Shown here: positions 42,005-55,055 of the stretch, in pieces | Numbering within the stretch: the stretch's first letter is position 1 | Layout: each line of letters begins with the position of its first letter | Source: an uncultured Actinomycetes bacterium | GTDB taxonomy: Bacteria; Actinomycetota; Thermoleophilia; UBA2241 | Assembly (NCBI GenBank): GCA_963767005.1 | Contig: CAVYCN010000003.1 | Coordinates: 192,001 to 256,000 of the forward strand | Direction: 5' to 3' | DNA: 64,000 nucleotides | The notes under the pieces: generated by a model | Told to the model about the DNA's origin: nothing | Seen by the model: the letters and a program-made list of their open reading frames with translations, nothing else | Databases searched by the model: none | Translations under genes and position numbers: made by a program

Positions 42005-42853
42005 ATGAGCGTCCTGCACGCGATCATCCTCGGCATCGTCCAGGGCCTGACCGAGTTCCTGCCGATCTCGAGCTCGGGTCACCTGATCCTCGTGCCCTGG
42101 CTGCTCGGCTGGAATGTGTTCCACGGCAACGAGAACCTGAACAAGACATTCGATGTCGCCCTGCACCTGGGCACGTTCGTCGCGGCGATCGCCTACTTCC
42201 GCCGCGAGGTCGTGGTCATCGTGCGCGCCTGGCTGCGCAGCCTGGCGCGGCGCAGCGTGAAGACGCCCGACGAGCGCCTCGCCTGGCTGCTGCTCGTGAG
42301 CACCATCCCCGCCGGCCTGGTCGGCGTGGCCTTCGAGAGCTTCGTCGAAGACCGGCTCGGCAAGCCCTGGCTGATCTGCGTGATGCTGATCGTCTTCGGC
42401 CTCGTCATGCTGGCCGTCGACATCACGGCGCGGGCGAACAAGCACATGGACGACCTGCGCTTCGGCGGCGCCCTGGGGATCGGCGTCGCGCAGGCGATCG
42501 CCCTGTCGCCCGGAGTCTCGCGCTCGGGCATCACGATGGTCACCGGCCTGCTGCTCGGGCTCGACCGCGAGTCGGCCGCGCGCTACTCGTTCCTGCTGTC
42601 CGTGCCGGTGGTCGGCGGCGCCGCCGTGCTCAAGCTCGGCCAGCTCGCCGCCAACGGCATGCCACCGCACATGCTCACGCCCTTCGTGGCGGGCACGATC
42701 GCCGCCGCGATCAGCGGCCTGGCGGCCATCTGGTTCCTGCTCGACTACCTGCGCAAGCACACCTTTGCGATCTTCGTGGCCTACCGGCTGATCGTCGGCG
42801 TGGCCCTGCTCGTGGTCATTCTCGCCGGCCTGCGGCCCGCGACCGGCATCTAG
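42005..42853 (+). CDS. uppP: Undecaprenyl-diphosphate phosphatase
   Basis: QGLTEFLPISSSGHL, PGVSRSG; TAG stop. Confidence 0.95.
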   Translation: MSVLHAIILGIVQGLTEFLPISSSGHLILVPWLLGWNVFHGNENLNKTFDVALHLGTFVAAIAYFRREVVVIVRAWLRSLARRSVKTPDERLAWLLLVSTIPAGLVGVAFESFVEDRLGKPWLICVMLIVFGLVMLAVDITARANKHMDDLRFGGALGIGVAQAIALSPGVSRSGITMVTGLLLGLDRESAARYSFLLSVPVVGGAAVLKLGQLAANGMPPHMLTPFVAGTIAAAISGLAAIWFLLDYLRKHTFAIFVAYRLIVGVALLVVILAGLRPATGI

Positions 42854-42983: not shown

Positions 42984-44051
42984 ATGCGGACACTCACCCT
43001 CGGCGATCGTGGCAAAGAAGTCTCCGACGTGCAGAAACGCCTGCACGCGCTGGGCTACGAGCTCGGCAGCGAGGGCGTCGACGGCTTTCTCGGGCCGCGC
43101 ACCCGCCTGGCCCTGCGCGCCTTTCAGCAGGAGCGCGGCCTGCTCGCCGACGGCGTCCTCGGGGCCAACACCTGGCGCGAGCTCGTCGAGGCCGGCTACG
43201 CGCTGGGCGACCGCCTGCTCTACCTGCGCGTGCCCAACTTCCGCGGCGACGACGTGCTCGCCCTGCAGGTGAAGCTCGACCTGCTCGGCTTCAACGCCGG
43301 CCCCGAGCGTGGCATCTTCGACAGGTCCGTCGAGCGCGCGCTGATCGACTTCCAGCGCAACGCCGGCCTGCCGTCCGACGGCATCGTCGGCGACGACACC
43401 CTGCGCAAGCTCGACGCGCTGCGCAAGGCCGAGTCGGGCCGCGAGGGCAAGAAGATCCCCGACCGCGACGAAGGCTTCGTGCCCGAGACCAGCCTGGCCG
43501 GCGCGGTCATCGTGATCGACCCCGGGCACGGTGGTCAGGACGTCGGCATCGTCTCGCCCGGCGGGCGGCGCGAGAAGGACCTCACGCTCGCCGTCGGCCT
43601 GCGCCTGGCCGAGATGCTGCGGGCCGAGGGCAGCCGCGTGGTCATGACGCGCGAATCCGACCAGACCGTGCCGCTCTACGTGCGCACCGACGCCGCCGAC
43701 ACGGCCACCGCGACCTACCTCGTCTCACTGCACTTCAACGCCAACGAGAGCCCCGCCGCGGACGGTGCCGTCTGTTACTACTTCCAGCGCAGCCACTACT
43801 ACTCCGAGCACGGCGCCCGCCTGGCCGACTACATCGGCGCCGAGGTCGGGCGCCTGTCCCCGGCCGGTTTCATCGCCGGCCTGGGGCGTAACTTCGCCAT
43901 GCTGCGCGAGCCCACCGCGATCGCCGTGCTGGTCGAGCCGCTGTTCCTCACCAACCCCGCCGACGACGCCCGCGCCGGGCGCGCCGACTACATCGAGGCC
44001 GTGGCACGCGCCATCGTGACCGGCTTCACGCGCTACCTCTCACGGGCGTGA
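42984..44051 (+). CDS. N-acetylmuramoyl-L-alanine amidase with two PG-binding domains (CwlM-like)
   Basis: Two PG_binding_1 repeats (AFQ..GL.ADG), DPGHGG, EKD, SLHFN, LVEP. Confidence 0.9.
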   Translation: MRTLTLGDRGKEVSDVQKRLHALGYELGSEGVDGFLGPRTRLALRAFQQERGLLADGVLGANTWRELVEAGYALGDRLLYLRVPNFRGDDVLALQVKLDLLGFNAGPERGIFDRSVERALIDFQRNAGLPSDGIVGDDTLRKLDALRKAESGREGKKIPDRDEGFVPETSLAGAVIVIDPGHGGQDVGIVSPGGRREKDLTLAVGLRLAEMLRAEGSRVVMTRESDQTVPLYVRTDAADTATATYLVSLHFNANESPAADGAVCYYFQRSHYYSEHGARLADYIGAEVGRLSPAGFIAGLGRNFAMLREPTAIAVLVEPLFLTNPADDARAGRADYIEAVARAIVTGFTRYLSRA

Positions 44052-44911
44052 GCACCGGGCCGACCGACGACGACGGCGGGATCGCTTTCACCGCGACCCA
44101 GCGCCAGCGCCTGCACGAGCTGGGCGCCGACGCCGCGGCCGGCGGGCGGACCTTCGCCGACGCGGGCGCGCGCGACGCGGCCTTCCGCGACCTCGAGACG
44201 AGCTTCGCCGCCGCCAGCCGCGCCGCCCTCGACGCGCTGCGCGCCGGGTCGCGCGTCCCGGCGCTGCGCCGTCTCGAACAGGCGCTGCGGGCGGCGCTCA
44301 GCGACGCCGGCCTGGTCGAAGTCGTGACGCCGACGATCGTCGGAGTCGAGGCGCTGCGCAAGATGGGCATCGAGCCGGGCGGCGAGCTTGCCGAGCAGGT
44401 CTTCTGGCTCGACCGCGACCGCTGCCTGCGGCCCATGCTCGCGCCCAACCTCTACACCCTGATGCGACGCCTGGCGCGGGTGTGGCGGCAGCCCTTCGCG
44501 ATCTACGAGATCGGCTCGTGCTTTCGCCGCGACACCAAGGGCAGCCGCCACCTGAACGAGTTCACGATGCTCAACCTCGTCGAGCTCGGCACGCCGCTCG
44601 AGCGCCGCGACGACCGCCTGCGCGAGCTCGCCGCGGTCGTGCTCGACGCGGCCGGCGTGACCGGCCACGAGCTCGTGCGCAAGCACTCCGAGGTGTACGG
44701 CGACGAGCTCGACGTAGTGGTCGCCGGCGTCGAGGTCTGCTCCACGGCCCTGGGGCCGCACCCGCTCGACGACGCCTGGGGCATCACCGATCCCTGGGTC
44801 GGCCTCGGCTTCGGGCTCGAGCGGCTGCTCGTGGCGCGCGACGGCCTGGCCGGCATCGAGCGCGTCGGCCGCAGCGTGAGCTACCTCGACGGCGTGCGGC
44901 TGCAGCTCTAG
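44048..44911 (+). CDS. pylSc: Pyrrolysine--tRNA ligase catalytic subunit (bacterial split type)
   Basis: TQRQRLHEL, VTPTI, QVFWLD, CLRPMLAPNLY, YEIGSCFR, HLNEFTMLN, VYGD, PWVGLGFGLERL, YLDGVRL; TAG stop. Confidence 0.96.
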   Translation: MSTGPTDDDGGIAFTATQRQRLHELGADAAAGGRTFADAGARDAAFRDLETSFAAASRAALDALRAGSRVPALRRLEQALRAALSDAGLVEVVTPTIVGVEALRKMGIEPGGELAEQVFWLDRDRCLRPMLAPNLYTLMRRLARVWRQPFAIYEIGSCFRRDTKGSRHLNEFTMLNLVELGTPLERRDDRLRELAAVVLDAAGVTGHELVRKHSEVYGDELDVVVAGVEVCSTALGPHPLDDAWGITDPWVGLGFGLERLLVARDGLAGIERVGRSVSYLDGVRLQL

Positions 44912-44977
44912 GCGGCGGCTCATGCGGGACGGGGCCGGTGAGGCTGCCGCCTCATCGGCCCCGTCCCATCGCCGCTC

Positions 44978-45535
44978 TCAGGCGGTCGCGCCCGCGCTCA
45001 CCGTCTCGGCCGGCTCCGCCGCCTTGACGAACTCGGCGTCGACGCTCAGCTTGACCTCGTCGCCGACGAGCAGGCCGCCAGCCTCGGTCACGACGTTCCA
45101 GGTGAGGCCGAAGTCCTTGCGGTTCAGCTTGCCGGTGGCCGACACGCCGATGCGCGTGTTGCCCCACGGGTCGGCGACCGGCCCCGATACCTCGGCGTCG
45201 AGCACGACCTCGCGGGTGACGTCCTTGATGGTGAGGTCGCCGGTGATCGCGTACCGGCCGTCGCCGCCCTCGACCCGCTTGACCACGTAGGTCATCTCCG
45301 GGTACGTCTGGGCGTCGAAGAAGTCGGGCGAGGCCAGGTGACCGTCGCGCTGGGCCTCGCGCGTGTTCACGCTGCCGGTCCGCACCGTCACGGTGCCGCG
45401 CGACCTGCTCAGGTCGTCCTCGTCGATGTCGGCGTCGATCGTGAAGTCGTCGAAGTGGCCGCGCACCGTCGAGACCACCATGTGGCGTACGGCGAACTCG
45501 AGGTTCGCATGCGTTCCGTCTGTCGTCCAGGCCAT
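44978..45535 (-). CDS. YceI family protein
   Basis: FAVRHM, VRG.F, RDGHL.S.DFF, GDLTIK, DPWGN, RKDFGL. Confidence 0.92.
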   Translation of the reverse strand: MAWTTDGTHANLEFAVRHMVVSTVRGHFDDFTIDADIDEDDLSRSRGTVTVRTGSVNTREAQRDGHLASPDFFDAQTYPEMTYVVKRVEGGDGRYAITGDLTIKDVTREVVLDAEVSGPVADPWGNTRIGVSATGKLNRKDFGLTWNVVTEAGGLLVGDEVKLSVDAEFVKAAEPAETVSAGATA

Positions 45536-45556
45536 CGTGCCCTCCTTTGAAGCATG

Positions 45557-45603
45557 ATGTTTGGCTGGCCAACAAAGTACCCGATAGTTGGCCAGCCAAA
45601 CAT
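45557..45603. promoter_or_regulatory. Likely MarR operator pair (17-bp inverted repeat)
   Basis: atgtttggctggccaac-13 bp-gttggccagccaaacat between divergent yceI and marR; each arm contains TTGGC-N2-GCCAA. Confidence 0.75.
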
Positions 45604-45620
45604 TCGGGTAGACTACGAGC

Positions 45621-46283
45621 ATGACTCCTGCGGGCAGACACGATGCAGCACGAGCGCCGGGCGGAGACCCCGCCCATCAGGCGACCCCGGCGCCGGCTGC
45701 CTGCGGCGCGGGCCCGTGCGCCGCGTCCGACGCGGACGCCGTCTCAGGCGCACGCACCGGCGAGTCACCCTGCGCGGGCCAGGAGACCGCGGCGCCGGAG
45801 GGGCTCGTCTGCGAGCACTGGCCGCGCAGCACCGCCCTCGCCGAGCGCACCGGCCCGACGGTGCACGCCGTGTTCCGCCTGTCGCGCATGCACCGCACGA
45901 TGGCCGGCCGCCTGCTGCGCGACCTCGGCCTGGCGCCCGGTCAGGAGCTCCTGCTGCTGCAGCTCTGGGACCGCGACCGCTGCTCGCAGACCGACCTCGT
46001 CGAGCGCCTCGGCATCGACCCGTCGACGGTGACCAAGATGCTGCAGCGTCTCGAGCGCGGCGGCTGGGTGCGCCGCGAGCCGTCGCCCGACGACGGGCGC
46101 GTGATGCTGGTGACCCTGACCGCCGCCGGCCGCGACCTGCAGGCCGCGGTCACCGACCTCTGGCGGCAGCTCGAGCACGAGACCGTGAAAACGCTGGCCG
46201 ACGAGGACCGGGCGGAGCTGCTGCGCCTGCTGCGCAAGGTCGAGACCGGCCTGCGCGCCACCTGCCCCGGCGGCGACGGCTGA
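45621..46283 (+). CDS. MarR family regulator
   Basis: SQTDL...IDPSTVTKMLQRLE, DGRV..V.LT; leaderless (TAGACT 6 nt before the ATG). Confidence 0.9.
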   Translation: MTPAGRHDAARAPGGDPAHQATPAPAACGAGPCAASDADAVSGARTGESPCAGQETAAPEGLVCEHWPRSTALAERTGPTVHAVFRLSRMHRTMAGRLLRDLGLAPGQELLLLQLWDRDRCSQTDLVERLGIDPSTVTKMLQRLERGGWVRREPSPDDGRVMLVTLTAAGRDLQAAVTDLWRQLEHETVKTLADEDRAELLRLLRKVETGLRATCPGGDG

Positions 46284-46290
46284 ACAACGA

Positions 46291-46331
46291 GGACCGGCCG
46301 GGCGGCGCCTGCGGCGCCGCCCGGCCGGTCC
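46291..46331. terminator. Bidirectional hairpin terminator
   Basis: Perfect 19-bp stem with 3-nt loop between convergent genes. Confidence 0.8.
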
Positions 46332-46353
46332 GTCTTCCGCCTCTTGTCGCGCC

Positions 46354-46995
46354 TTACCTGCCGAGCAGGGCGTCGATCTTCTTGACGCCGTCCGAGGCGT
46401 CCTCGGCGTAGGCGTCGGCGCCGATCTGGTCGGCCCAGCGCTGCGTGCAGGGGGCACCGCCGACCACGGTCTTGAAGGGCAGGCCCTCGTCGCGGATGAT
46501 CTTGATGACGCGGCGCTGCTCTTCCATCGTGGTGGTCAAAAGGGCGCTCATGCCGATGATGTCGGCGCCCTGCTCCTTGGCGCGGGCGATGAAGGTCTCG
46601 GCCGGCACGTCGCGGCCGCAGTCGGTGACGTCGTAGCCGTGGGCCTTCAGGTAGGCGATCACGATCGCCTTGCCGATGTCGTGCACGTCGCCCTGCACGG
46701 TGCCGATGATGACGGTGCCCTTCTTCTCGGCGGCGCCGCCCTCTAAGGCCGCGTTACAGACCCGGGTGGCGGCGTCCATCGCCTGGGCGGCGAGCATGAG
46801 CTCGGGCAAAAAGACCTCGCCCGACTCGAAGAGGTCGCCGACCTCGCTGATGCCGGCCACGAAACCCTTGTTGACGATCTCGCCGGGGCTCATGCCGGCC
46901 GCCAGGGCGCGCGTGGCGACGTCCTCGGCGGCGGCGGCGTCGTAGTTGACGATCGAATCGATCGCTTCCTGGATGAGCTCGTCTGTGTTGGCCAT
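46354..46995 (-). CDS. Methylamine-type methyltransferase corrinoid protein (MttC/MtbC-like)
   Basis: FLPEL cap, GDVHDIGK, SALLTTTM, VGGAP.TQRWADQIGAD; SD GAGGAGGAG. Confidence 0.93.
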   Translation of the reverse strand: MANTDELIQEAIDSIVNYDAAAAEDVATRALAAGMSPGEIVNKGFVAGISEVGDLFESGEVFLPELMLAAQAMDAATRVCNAALEGGAAEKKGTVIIGTVQGDVHDIGKAIVIAYLKAHGYDVTDCGRDVPAETFIARAKEQGADIIGMSALLTTTMEEQRRVIKIIRDEGLPFKTVVGGAPCTQRWADQIGADAYAEDASDGVKKIDALLGR

Positions 46996-47184
46996 AGCGT
47001 GCAACTCCTCCTCAAGAAGTCTGCCGTCCACTCGCCTCGCAAGCGATGGGTGCGCAAGCCCGGCGAACCGCGCCCGTACGCGTGGCGACGGTCCGCTTCG
47101 TTCGCGCACAAGTATACAGGTTCGCCCGAGCGCAAGCGTCCCACGGCGAGCGCCGGCGACACCGCGTGTTGGTACAATCGGGCC

Positions 47185-48063
47185 ATGCGTTACGTCGGCG
47201 CCGTCATCCGTCCGCCCAGCGAGGCTGCGAGCCTGATCGTACAGGTCACCTACGGCTGCTCCAACGCCTCGTGCGACTTCTGCTCGACCTACCTCGACAA
47301 GCCCTTCGCAGTGCGCCCCGCCGACGAGGTCGAGCAGGACCTGGCCGACCTGCCGCTCGCCATCAAGGAGCGCGTGCGCCGCGTCTTTCTGGCCGACGGC
47401 GACGCCCTCGCGCTGTCGCGCCGCCGGCTCGAGCACATCCTCGGGCTGCTGCGCCGCGAGCTGCCGGCCCTGGAGCGCGTGAGCTCCTACGCCAACGCCC
47501 GCAACCTGCTCACCAAGAGTCCCGACGACCTGGGCGCGATCCGCGCCGCCGGGCTCGAGCTGCTCTACCTGGGCCTCGAGTCGGGCGACGAGGAGACCCT
47601 CGCCGCCATCCACAAGGGCATCACCGTGGCCGAGCAGATCGAGGGTTGCGCCCGCGCGACGGCGGCCGGCTTCGAGCTCTCGGTCACCGCCATCCTCGGC
47701 CTGGCCGGGCCCGCACGCTCGCTCGCCCACGCGCGCGCCACGGGCGCCGCCCTGTCGGCCATCGACCCGCGCTACATCGGCGTGCTCAGCCTCATGGTCG
47801 AGCCCGGTACGCGCACGGCGGCGCGGGTCGCGTCGGGCGAGTTCGTCGTGCCCGACGCCTTCACCATGCTGCGCGAGCTGCGCGAGATCGTCGCCACGAC
47901 CGACGTGACCGACGCGCTGTTCCGCTCGAACCACGCCTCGAACTACCTGCCGGTCGGTGGCCGCCTGCCGCGCGACAGGGACGCCATGGTGGCGGCCCTC
48001 GACGGCGTGCTGTCGGCGCCCGACCGGGCCCGTCTCAAGCCCGAGGAGTGGCGCCTGCTGTAG
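47185..48063 (+). CDS. Radical SAM protein
   Basis: IRPPSEA, CSNASCDFC, FLADGD, GLESG, RSNHASNY; leaderless (TGGTACAAT); TAG stop. Confidence 0.88.
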   Translation: MRYVGAVIRPPSEAASLIVQVTYGCSNASCDFCSTYLDKPFAVRPADEVEQDLADLPLAIKERVRRVFLADGDALALSRRRLEHILGLLRRELPALERVSSYANARNLLTKSPDDLGAIRAAGLELLYLGLESGDEETLAAIHKGITVAEQIEGCARATAAGFELSVTAILGLAGPARSLAHARATGAALSAIDPRYIGVLSLMVEPGTRTAARVASGEFVVPDAFTMLRELREIVATTDVTDALFRSNHASNYLPVGGRLPRDRDAMVAALDGVLSAPDRARLKPEEWRLL

Positions 48064-48091
48064 CGGCTGGTGGCGCGACCGCGTCGCGCGG

Positions 48092-48433
48092 CTAGTGTCC
48101 GGTGTCCCGCTCGCGCAGGAACGACCCGTAGCCCCGCCGGAACTTGGTCGCGGCGTACTTCTGCAGCTTCCACTCCGGGATGCGGCACTGCGGGCAGGCC
48201 TCGAAGAAGAGCTTGTTGCGCAGCCAGCGCGCCGAGCGGCTCGTCTTGGAGTCGCGCACGATCATGACCTTGCCGCAATGGGTAGTCAGGCGCGCCCTGC
48301 TGCCCAGCACCTCGAACTCCTTGACGCCGTGCAGCAGGCCGCGGCGCGAGGGCCACAGCTTCATCTTCTCGACGAGCCTGAAGAGCGGCACCTGCTTGCG
48401 GTAGTAGACGACCTTGTTGGGATCGGTGGGCAC
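48092..48433 (-). CDS. pylSn: Pyrrolysine--tRNA ligase N-terminal tRNA-binding subunit
   Basis: LVEKMKLWPSRRGLLHGVK, THCG, DSKTSRSARWLRNK, CPQCRIPEWKL; leaderless (TGCTACACT); TAG stop. Confidence 0.95.
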   Translation of the reverse strand: MPTDPNKVVYYRKQVPLFRLVEKMKLWPSRRGLLHGVKEFEVLGSRARLTTHCGKVMIVRDSKTSRSARWLRNKLFFEACPQCRIPEWKLQKYAATKFRRGYGSFLRERDTGH

Positions 48434-48523
48434 GCCTGCGAGTGTAGCAAAGCCGGGCGGCCGCGAGGAACGCGGGCGGCGGCGCCGAAGCGGAACTTTT
48501 CACAGTCGTCTATCATCTGACCA

Positions 48524-50908
48524 GTGGCGCGACAGGCAGGCGCGGCCAGCGAGCGAGCGGAGTCGCACGAGGTGACGGGCAGGACCGAAGGAGCACGACG
48601 GCGGGGCGCCGGGCGTCCCCACGCCGTGCGCCTACGCCCCGCCCCGGGCACACGCCTCCACCGCCGCCTGCCGATCACGGCCTGGCTACCCACCTATCAG
48701 CGCCGCTTCCTGCGCGACGACACGATCGCCGCGCTGACCGTCATCGGCCTGCTCCTGCCCGAGTGCATGGCCTACGCGCAGATCGCCGGCGTGCCGCCCC
48801 AGGCCGGCCTCTACGCCACGCTGGCCGGCCTGACCGTCTACGCCCTCTTCGGCACCTCGCGCCAGATCATCTGCTCGCCGACCTCGACGGCCGCCATCAT
48901 GGCGGCCGCCGTCGTGGCCGCGCACGGCAGTCGCAGCCCCGCGCAGGCCATCACTCTGGTGGCGATGGTGGCCGTCATCGTCGGCCTGTTCATGGTGATC
49001 GCCGGCGTCGCCCGCCTCGGCTTCATCTCGGAGTTCCTCGCCCGCCCCGTGGTCACCGGCTACGTGACCGGCCTGGCGATGACCATCATCGCGCGGCAGG
49101 TGCCGAGCCTGCTCGGCATCCACGTCACGACCTCGGCCGACTTCTTCCGGGTCGCCTGGGCCGACCTCACGCACCTCGACGAGGCCAGCCTGGCGACGGC
49201 CGCGCTCAGCGCGGTCGCCCTCACCCTCCTGTTCCTCGCCCGGCGCTGGCCGCGCTTGCCGGGCGCGCTCACCGTGCTCGTGCTCGGCGTGATCGCGGCG
49301 GCCGTCCTGCACCTTGGCAGTCACGGCGTGGCCGTCGTGGGCACCATCCCGAGCGGCCTGCCGCTGCCGCGGCTGCCCCACCTGCACGGCGTCGACCTCG
49401 TCACGCTGCTGCCCAGCGCCGCCGGCATCGCCATCGTCGTCTACGCCGAGGCGCTGTCCGGGGCGCGGACCTTCGCCGTGCGCCATAGCTACGAGATCGA
49501 CGCCAACCAGGAGCTCGTGGCGCTCGGCCTGTCGAACATGAGCTCCGGCGCCTTCGGCGGCATCGTCGTGAGCGGCGGCCTGTCGGGCTCCGCCCTCGCC
49601 GACACGAGCGGCGCGCAGTCGCAGCTCACCGCCCTGATCGGCGCCGGCGTGCTGCTCGTCATGGTCTTCACCGTCACGCGCGTCGGCCACGACCTGCCCG
49701 AGGCGATCCTCGGCGCGGTCGTGGTGCGCGCCGTCTGGGGCCTGATCGACTTCGGCGCCCTGCGTCGCTTCGCCGGCGTGCGCGTGCTCGACGCCGCCCC
49801 GGCGGTCGCCGCTCTCATCGGCGTCCTCGCTCTGGGCGTGCTGCCCGGCCTGGGGGTGGCCGTCGGTCTGTCGCTCGCCATCCTGATCTACCGCTCGAGC
49901 CGGCCCCACGCCGCGGTGCTCGGGCGGGTGCCCCACTCCAAGACCTACAGCGACGTGTCGCGCCATCCCGAGAACGAGACGTTCCCCGGCCTGCTGATCT
50001 TCCGTCTCGACGGCCAGCTCTTCTTCGCCAATGCCGGCTTTGCCGTCGACCGTCTGAACCAGTTGCTCTCCGCCATGCAACCGTCGCCCCGCGTCGTGAT
50101 CTGGAACATGGAGTCGACCACCGACCTCGACGTGACGGCCGCCGAGACGCTGCTGCGCCTCACCCGCACCCTGCGCGAGAGCGGCCGCGACGTCGTGTTC
50201 GCCCGCGTCGGCTCGGCCGTGATCGACGTCTTCGGGCGCTGCGGCATGCTCGAGCTGATCGGCGAGGACCACCTCTTCCTCACGGTGGACAGCGCCGTGC
50301 AGGACTGCCTGCACAGCCGCCTCGCGGTGATCGCGGCGCTCGAGGCGCAGCTCAAAGAGGCGACGGCGGCCTGCATCATCGCTCACGGCGTGGCCGCCGG
50401 CGAGGTCACCGTGGCCGACGCCTACCGGACGATCGCCGACATCGAGGGCCGCGGCGACGCCATGCGTGGCGAGCTCGTCGCCCGCCTGTCGGGCGTGCTC
50501 GTCGCGCCGATCGACCGCGAGGACCTGTTCCGCCTCTCGCGCTCGATCGACGACGTCCTCGACAACCTGCGCGACTTCATCCGCGAGTGGGACCTCTACG
50601 AGATCGATGCCGCGAGCGCCTACCTGGGCCTGCTCGACGCCACCGCCGACGCGATCGCCGACCTCAAGCGCGCCGTACACGCCGTGGCCACCGACCCCAA
50701 GGACGTGAAGCAGGCGCTCACCTCGAAGGAGTCGGCCGAGGAGATCCGCCGGCTCTACGACGTCGAGCTCGGCCGGCTGTTCCACGGCACGCTCACGATG
50801 GAGGTCGTGAAGTGCCGCGAGGTGCTGCGCAGGCTCGACGTCGTCGGCCTGCGCTTGAACGAGGCCGCCGACCGGCTCTCCGACGCGGCCATCAAGCGCT
50901 GGGCCTGA
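48524..50908 (+). CDS. SulP (SLC26) anion transporter with STAS domain and C-terminal DUF47-like domain
   Basis: PECMAYAQIAG, NQELVALG, LFFANA/STAS, then IEGRGD...PIDREDL; TATCAT 7 nt before the GTG. Confidence 0.88.
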   Translation: MARQAGAASERAESHEVTGRTEGARRRGAGRPHAVRLRPAPGTRLHRRLPITAWLPTYQRRFLRDDTIAALTVIGLLLPECMAYAQIAGVPPQAGLYATLAGLTVYALFGTSRQIICSPTSTAAIMAAAVVAAHGSRSPAQAITLVAMVAVIVGLFMVIAGVARLGFISEFLARPVVTGYVTGLAMTIIARQVPSLLGIHVTTSADFFRVAWADLTHLDEASLATAALSAVALTLLFLARRWPRLPGALTVLVLGVIAAAVLHLGSHGVAVVGTIPSGLPLPRLPHLHGVDLVTLLPSAAGIAIVVYAEALSGARTFAVRHSYEIDANQELVALGLSNMSSGAFGGIVVSGGLSGSALADTSGAQSQLTALIGAGVLLVMVFTVTRVGHDLPEAILGAVVVRAVWGLIDFGALRRFAGVRVLDAAPAVAALIGVLALGVLPGLGVAVGLSLAILIYRSSRPHAAVLGRVPHSKTYSDVSRHPENETFPGLLIFRLDGQLFFANAGFAVDRLNQLLSAMQPSPRVVIWNMESTTDLDVTAAETLLRLTRTLRESGRDVVFARVGSAVIDVFGRCGMLELIGEDHLFLTVDSAVQDCLHSRLAVIAALEAQLKEATAACIIAHGVAAGEVTVADAYRTIADIEGRGDAMRGELVARLSGVLVAPIDREDLFRLSRSIDDVLDNLRDFIREWDLYEIDAASAYLGLLDATADAIADLKRAVHAVATDPKDVKQALTSKESAEEIRRLYDVELGRLFHGTLTMEVVKCREVLRRLDVVGLRLNEAADRLSDAAIKRWA

Positions 50909-50985
50909 GGGAGCGCACCCGGCTCACCGCGACCGCGGTGGATCAGGAGAAAGTCGTTCGGGGTCTTCCTGTGCAGGGAGATCGG

Positions 50986-51058
50986 TGGCGGGGAGTAGGG
51001 GAGTTACACCCCTCTACGTGGATTTAGAGTCCACGCTGATCCTTCCGATCGACCCCCC
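50986..51058 (-). tRNA. pylT: tRNA-Pyl, anticodon CUA
   Basis: GGGGGGU C GAUC GGAAG GAUC AG CGUGGA CUCUAAA UCCACG UAG AGGGG UGUAACU CCCCU ACUCCCC G CCA: 1-nt connector, 5-nt D loop, 6-bp anticodon stem, no TpsiC, G discriminator, encoded CCA. Confidence 0.97.
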
Positions 51059-51101
51059 GCGCCGAGGCCAAGGGTAGCTCATCGGCGGCCGCGCGACAAA
51101 G

Positions 51102-51923
51102 TCAGCGCGTGAGCGCCTCGACGGCCATCGCGGCCACACCGAGGGCGAGCGGCTCGTGCACGAGCCGCTCGCCCAGCGCCCGGGCCGCGGCTGCCGTGAC
51201 GCCGGGCGGCAGGCCCGGCGAGCTCACCACGCCGTCGCTGCCCACCCAGCCGGCGTCGATCAGGTCGGGCGTGGGGGTGGCGTCGAGCACGAACCGGCTG
51301 CGCGCGAGGCCGTCGGCCAGCGTGACCGGCGTGACCTGCGGCAGCTCGGCGACGATGGGCGCGAGACGCGCCTCGTCGCGCTCGCAGACGAGCACGTCGG
51401 CGCCGAGCGTGACCAGACGGGCGGCGGCGGCCCGGCCGACGGGGCCGAGGCCGATCAGCAGGACGGGCCGGCCGGCGAGGCCGGCGGGCCCGGCGGCGGC
51501 CGCGAGCGCCGCGACGTAGGCGTGCGCCGTGCAGGGATCGTCGTCGGCGACCACGCGGCGCGCGAAGTCGAGCGCCAGGAACCTGCCGTCGTCGGCGGCG
51601 AAGACGAGGTCGTCGCCGGCCTTCAGGGCCTCGCCGAAGCCGGCCACGTCGGTGGCGTCGGTCACGCGGGCGCGGCAGCCCAGGCGGGCGCAGATGGCGG
51701 CGACGCAGTCGACGAAGCCGGGGATGACGCCCTCGCCGCTCGTGATCGGCACGACGGCGACGGCGGCCTGGGCGAGGGCGTCGCGGGCGACACCCGCGGA
51801 TGCGCCGCAGGCCCGCGCGGCCAGTGCGACGAAGTCGCAGCCGGTGAGCGCCACCAGGCGCCCCTCGACCTCGTCGAGATGCGCGGTCAGCGTACGGACG
51901 TCGTCCTCGACCAGTCTCGTCAC
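51102..51923 (-). CDS. pylD: 3-methylornithyl-N6-L-lysine dehydrogenase
   Basis: MTRL, VPITSGEGVIPGF, TDVAG, AADD, IGLGPVG, HEPLALGVAAM. Confidence 0.93.
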   Translation of the reverse strand: MTRLVEDDVRTLTAHLDEVEGRLVALTGCDFVALAARACGASAGVARDALAQAAVAVVPITSGEGVIPGFVDCVAAICARLGCRARVTDATDVAGFGEALKAGDDLVFAADDGRFLALDFARRVVADDDPCTAHAYVAALAAAAGPAGLAGRPVLLIGLGPVGRAAAARLVTLGADVLVCERDEARLAPIVAELPQVTPVTLADGLARSRFVLDATPTPDLIDAGWVGSDGVVSSPGLPPGVTAAAARALGERLVHEPLALGVAAMAVEALTR

Positions 51924-51941
51924 CGCGACTCCTCCTCGCCC

Positions 51942-53240
51942 CTACTCGAGCACGACGTCGAGGCCGTACTCGCCCGCCAGGCGGTCGACGGCGGCCGCGG
52001 CGCGCATGCGCGCCTCGGCCGCCGTCTCGCCTCTCGTCATGATCACGGCGACCCAGCCGCCTGCCCGGCTGCGGGCGCGCGCCTCGCGCGCCTCGCCGAG
52101 GTCGACCACCTTGGCCCCGAGCGCGCGTTCGACCGGCCCGTCGGTCAGCACCACGTCGGCGCCCCACAGGCCCTCGCAGCGACGCAGGGGACCGGCCGCC
52201 CCGACCACGTGCTCGCCCAGCACCTGCACCCGCCCGTCGGCGACGAGCACGTGCTCGTAGACGGCGCCGCGCCGGGCGGCGGTCGCGGCCGGTCCGGCGG
52301 CCAGATCGGCCGGCACGGCGCCGCTCGCGAACGTCTCGGCCAGGACCTGGACGATGTTGACGTCGCTCGCGTGGTAGGCGCAGGCCGGCGTCTGGCTGGG
52401 CAGCCGCGCGTCGATCTCGAGCACCTTGGGCACGCCGGCGTGCCCCATCATGACCTCGACATCCATCACGCCGCCCAGCCCGGCGGCGGCGCCCGCGCCG
52501 GTGCGACCGACGCCGGCCGCGAGGCGCCGGCTCACCTCGTCGAGCGCGGCCAGCGCCCCGTCGTCGATCAGGTCGGAGCCACCGCCCTGCGCGGCGGGGT
52601 CCTTCGCCGCCTGCGCGACCGGGGCGACGACGCGTTTGCAGTCCCAGCCCGCGTCGAACTCGAGCCAGGTGGGCGCCAGCGTGACCGTCGCGCCACCGTA
52701 CGAGACCATGTCGACCGAGAGCGAAGGCCCGGGCACGTACTCCTCGATGACGGCGTCGGCGCCGCTTGCGGCCAGACGGGCGCGCGCGAGCGCGAGCTCG
52801 GTATCCGACCAGACGAGCTCGACCTGCACGCTGCCGCTCCCCACGCTCGGCTTGACGATCACGGGAAAGCCGCAGGGCCAGGGCGCCGGGCGGGGCACGT
52901 CGAGCCGCGCGAACAGCTCGTTCGAGCGCAGCTTGGACTGGGTCACCGCGTAGGCGTCGGGGTCGAAGAGCAGCGGCACGCCCAGCCCTGGCACGAACGA
53001 GGCGAGAAAGGCGAGCGTGCGCTCGTCCTCGCAGGCCGGCAGCACGGCGTCGCACGACAGGAGCACCTCGCGAGTGCGGGCCGGGTCGACGGCGACGTCG
53101 AACACGTGGCTCTCGGCGGCCAGGCCGGCCGCCGGCCGCCCCGGGCGCCGGTCGACCAGCACGACGTCGTAACCGGCCTCGCCGGCCAGGTACGCCGCCT
53201 CGGTGCCCTGCAGCTTGCCGCCGACGACCGCGAGCCTCAT
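51942..53240 (-). CDS. pylC: 3-methylornithine--L-lysine ligase (ATP-grasp)
   Basis: VVGGKLQGTEAAYLA, SKLRS, VKPSVGSGS, DCKRV, MDVE, EIDARLPSQTP; ATGA overlap with pylB; TAG stop. Confidence 0.94.
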   Translation of the reverse strand: MRLAVVGGKLQGTEAAYLAGEAGYDVVLVDRRPGRPAAGLAAESHVFDVAVDPARTREVLLSCDAVLPACEDERTLAFLASFVPGLGVPLLFDPDAYAVTQSKLRSNELFARLDVPRPAPWPCGFPVIVKPSVGSGSVQVELVWSDTELALARARLAASGADAVIEEYVPGPSLSVDMVSYGGATVTLAPTWLEFDAGWDCKRVVAPVAQAAKDPAAQGGGSDLIDDGALAALDEVSRRLAAGVGRTGAGAAAGLGGVMDVEVMMGHAGVPKVLEIDARLPSQTPACAYHASDVNIVQVLAETFASGAVPADLAAGPAATAARRGAVYEHVLVADGRVQVLGEHVVGAAGPLRRCEGLWGADVVLTDGPVERALGAKVVDLGEAREARARSRAGGWVAVIMTRGETAAEARMRAAAAVDRLAGEYGLDVVLE

Positions 53241-54370
53241 GCGGGGCGCTCGGCGGCCGCCACCCCGTCGCCGCCCGCGGCGATCGCGGCCGCCGCCCGG
53301 CGGCCGCGCGCGGCCGCCACCCAGGCGGCGTACTCGGCCGCGCTCGCGACCCGCAAGCCTGACTTGGCCAGCCGTTCCACGACGACGGGCGCGGTGCGCA
53401 AGCCGGCGTCGATGTCGAGCTCGGACTGCGAGACGCCGGCGAGACCGGTGTGGGGCGGCACGAGCGACGTGACGACGTTCGCGCCGGCGGCGATGCGCGA
53501 CTCGAGGCCGGCGATGCCGTCGACGTCGAGCGACGCGGGGATCAACCGGTCGGGCATGGCCAGGCGCATGGTGGCGATCGTGACGAGCTCGCCGAGCCGT
53601 CCGGCCGGTCGCAGGTCGGCGAGCGGGGTGCCGCGCTGCGGCACGAAGGTCATGACGCGCACCTGGTCGAGCGGCTCGGCCCGCATGGCGGTCACCGTCA
53701 TGGCGCGCTCGGCCACCGTCTCGCCGACGCCGAGCAGCATGCCGTCCTCGACCAGCATGCCGCGCGCGGCGGCGTCGAGTCGCGCCTGGGCGCGCTCGTC
53801 GAAGTCCTGACCGACCCGCAGGCGGTCGTACAGCTCGCGGGCCTGCGTCTCCTGGTAGCAGGCGTACCACTCGGCGCCGGTCGCGGCCAGAGCGGCGAGG
53901 GCGCCGGGCCCGAGCACGCCCGGCGAGGCCATCACCGGCAGGCCGGTGGTGGCGCGCACCGCCGACACGAGCACGAGAAAGGCGTCGAACTCGCGGCCCT
54001 CGCGGTAGCGCGGGTCCTCGCCCATGGTGAGGTCGATCAGGTGGACGCCTGATCCGGCGAGGCCGACGCTGATCGCCACGACCTCGTCGAGCGACTTGCG
54101 GTACCGCGGCCCCGCGCGGTTGCTGCGACGGTACAGGCAGAACGTGCAGTCGTTGCGACAGTACGTCGAGAAGTAGACGAAGCCGTAGAGAAAGACGGCG
54201 TCGCCGAACCGCCGCCGGCGCAGCTCGCTCGCGGCGGCGAACAGGTCGGCCGCCGCGGCCTGGTCGTCGACCGCGAGCAGCGTGGCGATCTCGCTGTCCG
54301 ACGGCCCCTGCCCGGCGAGCGCCCGTTCCAGGATCGGAGCGATGGCGGCCGACGCCGCGTCGGGCCTCAT
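53237..54370 (-). CDS. pylB: 3-methylornithine synthase (radical SAM lysine mutase)
   Basis: YGFVYFSTYCRNDCTFC, HLIDLTMGED, CYQET, RVMTFVPQ.GTP, IPASLDVDG, GANVVTS. Confidence 0.96.
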   Translation of the reverse strand: MRPDAASAAIAPILERALAGQGPSDSEIATLLAVDDQAAAADLFAAASELRRRRFGDAVFLYGFVYFSTYCRNDCTFCLYRRSNRAGPRYRKSLDEVVAISVGLAGSGVHLIDLTMGEDPRYREGREFDAFLVLVSAVRATTGLPVMASPGVLGPGALAALAATGAEWYACYQETQARELYDRLRVGQDFDERAQARLDAAARGMLVEDGMLLGVGETVAERAMTVTAMRAEPLDQVRVMTFVPQRGTPLADLRPAGRLGELVTIATMRLAMPDRLIPASLDVDGIAGLESRIAAGANVVTSLVPPHTGLAGVSQSELDIDAGLRTAPVVVERLAKSGLRVASAAEYAAWVAAARGRRAAAAIAAGGDGVAAAERPA

Positions 54371-54742: not shown

Positions 54743-55033
54743 TCAGTCGTGGTCGGGCGCCTCGGGCAGGTTGCGGATGTTCTCGCCGGCCTGCCACTTG
54801 CCGAAGTTGTCGTTCATCGCGTCGATGAGCTCCTTCATGAAGCGCGCCGACATGTTGATGCGCGCGACGACGACACCGTTCACCTCTTCCTCGGTCTCGT
54901 TCTCGTGGTCGAGCCGCATGAAGGTGAGCGAGAACTCGTAGTCCGAGTGGCTCACGTTGGCGAAGTTGGCGTAGACGCCGGCCATCATCTCGGGCGTGGC
55001 GTGAATGTTGAAGCGACGTTCGTCGTCTTGCAT
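54743..55033 (-). CDS. DUF3467 family small protein
   Basis: GVYANFANVSHS..EF.L.F, VVARI; SD AAAGGAGG. Confidence 0.8.
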   Translation of the reverse strand: MQDDERRFNIHATPEMMAGVYANFANVSHSDYEFSLTFMRLDHENETEEEVNGVVVARINMSARFMKELIDAMNDNFGKWQAGENIRNLPEAPDHD

Positions 55034-55055
55034 GGTTGCTGCGGCCTCCTTTGCT

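Follow-up and report, generated by a model that had tools for sequence, protein, structure and literature searches.

A 64,000-nucleotide stretch of contig CAVYCN010000003.1 (positions 192,001 to 256,000 of assembly GCA_963767005.1, called the window in what follows) from an uncultured actinobacterium carries a locus for the use of pyrrolysine (Pyl) at UAG codons. PylB, PylC and PylD build Pyl from two lysines, PylSc together with PylSn charges tRNA-Pyl, and Pyl activates methylamines, from which the methyl group passes to a corrinoid protein. The genome encodes 16 methyltransferases with an in-frame UAG, and these sense UAGs appear to be set apart by the codons in front of them and by a hairpin behind them.

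The pyrrolysine locus and its inheritance

A profile search of the window found pylSc, pylSn, pylB, pylC and pylD open, intact and above the curated NCBIfam cut-offs, and tRNA-Pyl was called by ARAGORN, so that all six parts reported by the first-pass annotation are present at the positions given here (scores in bits against the cut-off).

42005..42853, plus strand: uppP/bacA, conserved left flank of the locus
42984..44051, plus strand: N-acetylmuramoyl-L-alanine amidase with peptidoglycan-binding domains, overlapping pylSc in GTGA
44048..44911, plus strand: pylSc, catalytic subunit of pyrrolysyl-tRNA synthetase (TIGR02367, 298 against 178 bits), ending in TAG
44978..45535, minus strand: yceI-family gene, an insertion found only in the host's genus
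45621..46283, plus strand: marR regulator (open reading frame limits, real start uncertain), only in the host's genus
46331-46291, minus strand: terminator-like stem of 19 bp, 3′ of the corrinoid gene
46354..46995, minus strand: methyltransferase cognate corrinoid protein (TIGR02370, 219 against 215), conserved locus member
47185..48063, plus strand: radical SAM protein (PF04055; true start 47185), conserved locus member
48092..48433, minus strand: pylSn, tRNA-binding subunit as a gene of its own (TIGR03912, 122 against 51), ending in TAG
48441..48449, minus strand: extended −10 box TGCTACACT, 7 nt 5′ of the pylSn GTG, predicted leaderless promoter
48524..50908, plus strand: sulP-STAS-PhoU_div fusion (open reading frame limits), among the variable insertions that separate pylSn from pylT
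50986..51058, minus strand: pylT, tRNA-Pyl(CUA) (ARAGORN), with G discriminator and encoded CCA
51071..51099, minus strand: predicted pylT promoter, TTGTCG-17 nt-TACCCT; relatives have TACAAT-type boxes at the same place
51102..51923, minus strand: pylD (TIGR03911, 195 against 150)
51942..53240, minus strand: pylC (TIGR03909, 279 against 248), ending in TAG
53237..54370, minus strand: pylB, radical SAM methylornithine synthase (TIGR03910, 429 against 348), with a CxxxCxxC motif
54743..55048, minus strand: DUF3467 gene, conserved right flank

The genes pylB, pylC and pylD overlap or are tightly spaced and form one unit. The split layout described at first pass is real, but its three units are probably four transcription units, since pylT and pylSn each have a conserved −10 box; that of pylSn keeps the form TGnTAnACT in most relatives, and a leaderless-type promoter is predicted for the radical SAM gene as well. 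The tRNA folds as a cloverleaf with a CUA anticodon and an extended anticodon stem, and a search of the window against Rfam gave no match. Judged by its sequence, PylSc belongs to the ordinary split type; it shares 51% identity with an Eubacterium limosum PylSc and has 3DSQ/2ZNI as its best matches in the PDB. A programmed PylC-Pyl-PylD fusion was considered and rejected: the TAG of pylC stands in frame with pylD, six codons on, in only 5 of 34 compared rows (the window included, two rows being identical), most relatives end pylC in TGA, and no hairpin follows the pylC TAG.

The genome is a metagenome-assembled genome (MAG) of 3.44 Mb in 19 contigs, 100% complete with 4.87% contamination, which rpoB places within the host family (f1). 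The 11 closest pylSc loci in public genomes are 63-87% identical, have the same neighbours and are titled Thermoleophilia, Actinomycetes or Actinomycetota bog_752, a genus that the available part of the PMC10805028 supplement lists in Thermoleophilia, family UBA2241. With the rpoB placement and the named syntenic relatives, the Thermoleophilia-type host proposed earlier is well supported, and the family is likely UBA2241, because loci titled Bog-752 are syntenic and that genus is listed there. No sign of a chimeric assembly was seen, as rpoB (contig C10) and the pyl genes (contig C3) fall in the same genus-level clade. Near-identical gene pairs across contigs (C4:434668-435684 with C3:320201-321220, and C6:241889 with C15:5192) are possibly part of the contamination or recent duplications.

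In composition the locus resembles its surroundings, as the first-pass annotation had observed: its guanine-cytosine (GC) content is 71-76% against 68-76% for the whole window, the pyl genes have a GC content at third codon positions (GC3) of 0.95-0.97, which matches the genome median of 0.945, and no integrase or transposase was found among the 14 neighbouring open reading frames (ORFs) scanned. Across the class, 81 of 401 genomes have pylSc above the cut-off: the host family contributes 72 of its 80 genomes, a second family (f4) 9 of its 61, and ten others, with 260 genomes between them, none. A pylC match occurs in 80 of 89 host-family genomes, a separate pylSn gene in 5 of 5 relatives checked, and pylB, among 401 phylum-wide genomes, in just two, this one and a member of the second family. 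A survey of related MAGs, as proposed at first pass, covered 31 family loci with pylSc and pylC within 20 kb on one contig, and all 31 keep a core order in which the amidase gene and pylSc are followed by pylSn and pylC on the opposite strand. Of these loci, 30 have a called tRNA-Pyl, 28 the corrinoid gene and 26 the radical SAM gene, so that the last two, correctly seen to intervene together with yceI, marR and sulP (a sulP-PhoU fusion), are members of the locus and not mere genes in between; yceI, marR and sulP are restricted to the host's genus among the family loci compared. The amidase is the fixed upstream partner of pylSc (41 of 41 family loci), and in genomes without pyl genes the DUF3467 gene lies close to the amidase. 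As the core order is kept while the gap between pylSn and pylT measures anything between roughly 0.5 and 40 kb, the system once called dispersed is a fixed locus with insertions: its genes are indeed interspersed, but by variable pieces inserted into a conserved arrangement.

The concatenated Pyl tree (28 genomes, FastTree) agrees with the rpoB tree (40 genomes, a quick search) on the main clades, apart from a slight shift of one genus. Together with the native GC3 and the family-wide synteny, this bears out the earlier idea of a long-resident system, and the locus is likely vertically inherited throughout the family. Two family genomes of 1.7-1.8 Mb and 98% completeness (G014 and G002) have an empty pyl site, no MtbB and no Pyl-type MttB, which, nested as they are in the family, indicates loss; G014 keeps a GerMN gene that in its genus lies between pylSn and pylT, an observation that also points to loss. 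In a third genome that seems to lack pyl, the amidase is missing too and three MtbB genes are kept, so that an assembly gap is likely there. The PylSc sequences of the host family and of f4 form separate clades, monophyly is not rejected (approximately unbiased (AU) test, p 0.103), and either one or two acquisitions by the two families would fit. In f4 a compact pylT-Sn-Sc-B-C-D operon occurs in 9 of 61 genomes, mostly adjoining mtmB/mtbB/mttB; its tRNA-Pyl differs (72 nt; the A before the CCA region differs), TTA or GGT precedes the amber codon, and the radical SAM gene is also near the operon in three f4 loci, while it was not seen in 80 distant metagenome loci.

Several side observations concern the mobility of the locus. 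In G161 and G196 insertions of about 40 kb separate pylSn from pylT. In that of G161, Pfam identifies an integrase some 110 nt past the 3′ end of the tRNA-Pyl gene, and a terminase-like ORF without a Pfam hit lies deeper in the insertion. The tRNA gene may thus serve as an integration site; no duplication of the tRNA end (att site) was found at the insertions. A second intact pylB and pylD, without pylC, lie at C4:551779-554336 of this genome in a lower-GC island (GC3 0.81-0.82) that also holds a phage-type integrase (C4:538968), one mttB of the Pyl type and one that is amber-free, as well as genes for a corrinoid protein and a permease. These copies group loosely in trees with another genus of the family, which suggests that pyl modules are still being transferred among relatives. 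In the largest genus of the family, most genomes have aldehyde:ferredoxin oxidoreductase, ferredoxin, a small MoaD-like ORF and nitroreductase leading directly into pylB on the same strand, a run absent from the window.

The presence of Pyl in this lineage, presented as new by the first-pass annotation, holds as sequence, but the lineage was already on record, which is in part an outcome that the first pass had itself named as a refutation. Guo et al. (2022; PMC9630628) count two Actinobacteria among 81 bacterial PylRS genomes, and the available part of their supplement gives PylSc of a 'Thermoleophilia bacterium' and of 'Actinobacteria bacterium ADurb.BinA094', neither with a PylSn entry; this actinobacterial PylSc is of the same class and has the same pocket motifs, MLAPNLY and FTMLNLV, as that of the host. 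Peat Actinobacteriota MAGs have been reported to express Pyl-type mttB and mtbB, with Bog-752 (UBA2241) named among the most active methylotrophs (PMC10805028; Ellenbogen et al., 2023). The full locus, its conservation across the family, the use of TAG and the codon context are described here and do not appear in the available parts of these two papers. A search for pyrrolysine literature together with Thermoleophilia, UBA2241 or Actinomycetota found no relevant title, most subscription journals lying outside the search, and the available text of PMC11467909 mentions neither Thermoleophil- nor PYLIS.

The host shares all six parts, separate pylSn and pylSc genes, a linked corrinoid gene and Pyl-MttB clients with the split system of the Desulfitobacterium hafniense type (PDB 3DSQ, 2ZNI), whose genes form a compact pylT-Sc-B-C-D-Sn cluster. 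It differs in that pylSc is joined to a cell-wall amidase on the strand opposite to pylB-C-D, pylT and pylSn, and in having a fixed chromosomal site, an insertion hotspot after pylT and clients from three families (16 in all).

Client methyltransferases and ordinary UAG stops

All 16 amber-containing methyltransferases of the genome (7 MttB, 8 MtbB and 1 MtmB) lie above cut-off. Each has one TAG, in the same alignment column within its family. Aligned with the structures 7XCL and 1L2Q (PDB), this column coincides with their Pyl residue, the position in MtbB being judged from the family model and the shared column. The available text of PMC1976440 gives 8 for the Olavius delta-1 symbiont, at one time described as the richest case among bacteria. 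MtbB occurs in 85 of 89 family genomes in 1-11 copies, with one TAG in each of the 150 matches listed, and Pyl-type MtmB in 11 of 89. The genome also contains about 30 amber-free genes of the MttB superfamily and three TAG-free MtmB homologues (C19:119913, C2:314112 and C3:104519) with Asn in the Pyl column and 24-28% identity to the Pyl copy. Genome-wide coding-score and hairpin scans gave no convincing case of a Pyl protein beyond the 16; weak-scoring genes could escape these scans, and the coding-score scan recovered only some of the 16. The Pyl system is very probably functional.

An AcsE-type methyltransferase and a corrinoid reactivase are encoded once each (C3:328992 and C4:106678), the latter beside lysine 2,3-aminomutase, and so are MetF with Hdr/Mvh subunits, FolD, Fhs, a hydrogenase, Nuo and a complex of the dimethyl sulfoxide-reductase family. 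Three clusters stand out: HdrA-MvhD-(MetV-like)-MetF-HdrC-HdrB (C7:30199-38245), an Mvh/Hdr hydrogenase (C18:54958-61319) and FolD-FchA-Fhs (C3:261655-267773). Acetyl-CoA synthase, the enzyme of the Wood-Ljungdahl pathway by which acetogens are recognised, had no match in this genome and is present in 60 of 89 family genomes. As the genome has no acetyl-CoA synthase, methyl groups would be passed to tetrahydrofolate via the AcsE-type methyltransferase and oxidised to formate or CO2; from the gene complement, methyl oxidation in the host and acetogenesis in many relatives are likely. The genome further encodes a tRNA-Sec (C4:389248-389345) and a formate dehydrogenase with an in-frame TGA (C19:161457-164171), and thus likely uses all 22 amino acids.

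UAG is at the same time an ordinary stop. It ends 873 of 2723 predicted non-Pyl genes (32%; gene calls from our own codon model), pylSc, pylSn and pylC among them, and a gene for release factor 1 (RF1) is present. Samples of 57-109 genes put the share of TAG among stops at 20-22% in the two relatives that lost Pyl, at 22-32% in two that have it and at 22-50% in three families without it, and these comparable shares indicate that TAG is not depleted in the host. Genome-wide recoding of TAG (code 34) was rejected, because the coding score falls after TAG and conserved C-termini end there. Read-through of the TAG of the radical SAM gene was likewise rejected: among 35 rows there is neither a conserved extension nor a hairpin, and the codon is a true stop, used in 28 of the 35 with CTG or CTC before it in all 28. 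The code 34 archaea, in which all TAG means Pyl (bioRxiv 10.1101/2024.09.30.615893), and Methanosarcina with its ambiguous amber use (PMC12626013) share the Pyl machinery and in-frame TAG with the host, as far as the available texts describe them. Unlike these archaea, the host has TAG at about 32% of its gene ends and no convincing internal TAG outside methyltransferases, while in Pyl archaea TAG ends 1-27% of genes with a median of 5% (PMC12626013).

Codon context and the predicted AGRN hairpin

At 83 of 86 Pyl sites in the family the Leu codon before UAG is TTG or TTA, codons that make up 2.1% of the Leu codons of the genome and precede 1 of 67 TAG stops. Together, this UUR preference and a bias toward GGG/GGT occupy codons −1 and −2 of Pyl-UAG. 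Synonymous constraint in the Pyl genes peaks at codons −2/−1 and again at +21 to +30 and is absent from 32 amber-free MttB genes, such selection being easy to see because the genome is 71% GC.

Downstream of the UAG this constraint marks a predicted hairpin in each family: in mttB at +72 nt (GUUGGC-AGGN-GCCAAC), in mtbB at +78 nt (GCYGG-AGAY-CUGGU) and in mtmB at +114 nt (GACGY-AGGN-GCGUU, atop a long stem). An AGRN-capped stem of at least 5 bp is found at 16 of 16 Pyl sites of the genome against 0.14 expected from synonymous recoding; these sites are related paralogs and not independent, whereas the three enzyme families are. Elsewhere, TAG stops have such a hairpin in 20 of 873 cases and TGA stops in 35 of 1734, and none of the 33 amber-free MttB genes has one. 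A close mttB paralog that lost its TAG encodes the same residues (ALAGAN) with ordinary codons. In mtbB 98.3% of alignment cells pair, with CG, UA, GC, UG and AU all seen at one position, and four pair types at one position arise from two synonymous sites. Double-sided changes number 21 against 4.2 in shuffled alignments for mtbB (50 sequences), 7 against 0.8 for mttB (42) and 12 against 4.4 for mtmB (21), and in each family 0 of 500 shuffles reach the observed count, in tests that are all inflated by relatedness. The mtmB hairpin alone is unusually stable (z −4.4). The hairpin recurs in distant bacteria, in a metagenome set comprising the best 80 of the 573 pylSc loci that non-actinobacterial queries retrieved, with a GC content of 32-63% and a PylSc no more than 58% identical to any reference, where a stem of at least 4 bp is present in 25 of 25 mtbB, 11 of 13 TAG-bearing mttB, 7 of 9 mtmB and 0 of 8 TAG-free mttB genes. 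Such patterns make it very probable that the hairpin is a selected RNA structure; that it also raises the amount of full-length Pyl protein is rated somewhat better than an even chance.

Part of this element has been drawn before. The structure of Rfam PYLIS_2 (RF02509, mtbB) already includes the +78 hairpin with its AGAY loop, while that of PYLIS_3 (RF02510, mttB) is without the +72 AGGN hairpin of the host, and the mtmB hairpin at +114 falls outside the 100 nt of PYLIS_1 (RF01982). Scored over the 100 nt that follow UAG, the scanned mttB and mtbB sites exceed the gathering scores of these covariance models, which also score coding-sequence conservation, and the mtmB of this genome stays under it (46 against 70). 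Rfam keeps the three as unrelated families, whereas here one AGRN loop is found in all of them. In the available text of PMC3639795, likely the source paper of the Rfam entries, the downstream regions are said to share no structure and mttB to have none, and PMC1976440, in the part available, reports a search of bacterial Pyl genes in which no common structure was found. A loop common to all three families was not found in the PYLIS literature searched, which left out most subscription journals. The mtbB hairpin (in Rfam) and the lineage as a Pyl user are therefore already known, and the loop shared by three families was not found in print.

The arrangement resembles that of the selenocysteine insertion sequence (SECIS) and SelB, in that a hairpin lies within the coding sequence 3′ of a recoded stop, and the UGA of the host's own formate dehydrogenase gene has its own hairpin. 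That hairpin starts within a few nucleotides and has another loop, whereas the Pyl element is 72-114 nt away. No dedicated elongation factor for Pyl insertion is known.

How sense UAGs may be told from stops

We give a probability of roughly 0.6 to the reading that an intact, vertically inherited system supplies the 16 methyltransferases, and that the UUR codon and the AGRN hairpin mark their sense UAGs while all other UAGs stay stops. Since pylSc overlaps the gene of a housekeeping amidase, and pylSn and pylT are each preceded by a conserved −10 box, the three would be constitutively expressed. With synthetase and tRNA made from housekeeping-type promoters, Pyl-tRNA would compete with RF1 at some 870 UAG stops, and the marks in cis would tilt this competition only on methyltransferase mRNAs; alternatively, they may protect the message while the ribosome waits at UAG.

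A number of results weigh against this reading. Folding of single sequences is unremarkable for mttB (z 0.05) and mtbB (z −0.54), and a 42-nt mttB piece prefers another fold. Under a strict test of 5 contiguous bp only 31 of 40 mttB and 9 of 17 mtmB sites pass class-wide, and the loop is CGGA in one mtmB and CAGU in two distant mtmB. Counted by base pairs with double changes, mtbB and mtmB do not exceed the shuffled alignments (290 of 500 and 262 of 500), to which the relatedness of the aligned sequences and the origin of the gene calls have to be added. The hairpin is far from the UAG, at distances that differ among families and are too long for a SelB-like tether; no dedicated reader gene was found to co-occur with the pyl loci except PylSn; and a strict consensus promoter scan of the region scored no promoter, that of pylT included. 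In Methanosarcina, moreover, Pyl is inserted without a required element (PMC2933860, PMC13663744, as far as their available texts go).

The strongest form of the preferred reading is a true Pyl insertion code, in which an AGRN hairpin that evolved three times, in mttB, mtbB and mtmB, would act with a UUR codon in the ribosomal P site and let Pyl-tRNA beat RF1, the reader possibly being the free-standing PylSn. If PylSn read the hairpin, both its separate gene and the tolerance of UAG at a third of gene ends would be explained. We hold this form only tentatively, with the odds leaning against it.

A less likely competitor accepts a working Pyl system and lets the hairpin act on the mRNA, as a site of RNA polymerase pausing, anti-Rho action, nuclease cleavage or regulator binding that preserves or destroys the 3′ part of the message when ribosomes stall or stop at UAG. 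A distance of 72-114 nt that lies outside the ribosome and varies by family fits such a role, which also predicts that the hairpin is lost together with the TAG, and amber suppression proceeds without the element in archaea and E. coli (PMC2933860, in its available part). What it leaves unexplained is the UUR and GGG/GGT bias at codons −1 and −2, inside the decoding ribosome.

Less probable still is a context-blind ambiguity as in Methanosarcina, set by the supply of Pyl through induction of pylBCD on methylamines, with the codons and hairpins as by-products of protein motifs and gene transfer. The single pylB-C-D unit could be regulated in this way, ALAGAN is conserved in the archaeal protein too, and the weak folding scores of mttB and mtbB and the published searches without a common structure (PMC1976440, PMC3639795, in the parts available) are what it would predict. 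It does not account for one loop in three families with unrelated Pyl sites, for hairpins at every one of the 16 sites where 0.14 were expected, for the four pair types reached through two synonymous sites in mtbB, or for the lack of the same constraint in the 32 amber-free MttB genes. That the system arrived recently, does not work or stems from faulty binning is very improbable and largely refuted, for although the MAG has 4.87% contamination and another pylB and pylD lie in an island with low GC3 and an integrase, the native GC3, the family-wide synteny, the congruent trees and the joint loss with client genes all speak against it.

How cells distinguish Pyl-UAG from stop UAG is an open question, and according to the available text of a 2025 paper (PMC12626013) no mechanism for targeted Pyl insertion is known in any organism. 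The element described here is a short, mutable candidate with built-in negative controls, and a handful of synonymous mutants would suffice to probe it. Should it function in E. coli, context-selective expansion of the genetic code would become possible and the element could serve as a portable tag for site-selective amber suppression, and the locus offers a possible new orthogonal PylRS/tRNA pair. For annotation the consequence is direct, as standard procedures truncate all these methyltransferase genes at TAG. For the organism, the picture is that of a bacterium which keeps UAG as a common stop yet would mark 16 sense UAGs, in a pattern kept across three enzyme families and in distant bacteria. 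It belongs to an uncultured actinobacterial family, with peat and bioreactor records included, that is built around the use of methylamines, with up to 11 MtbB per genome, and that for this reason likely competes with methanogens for these substrates.

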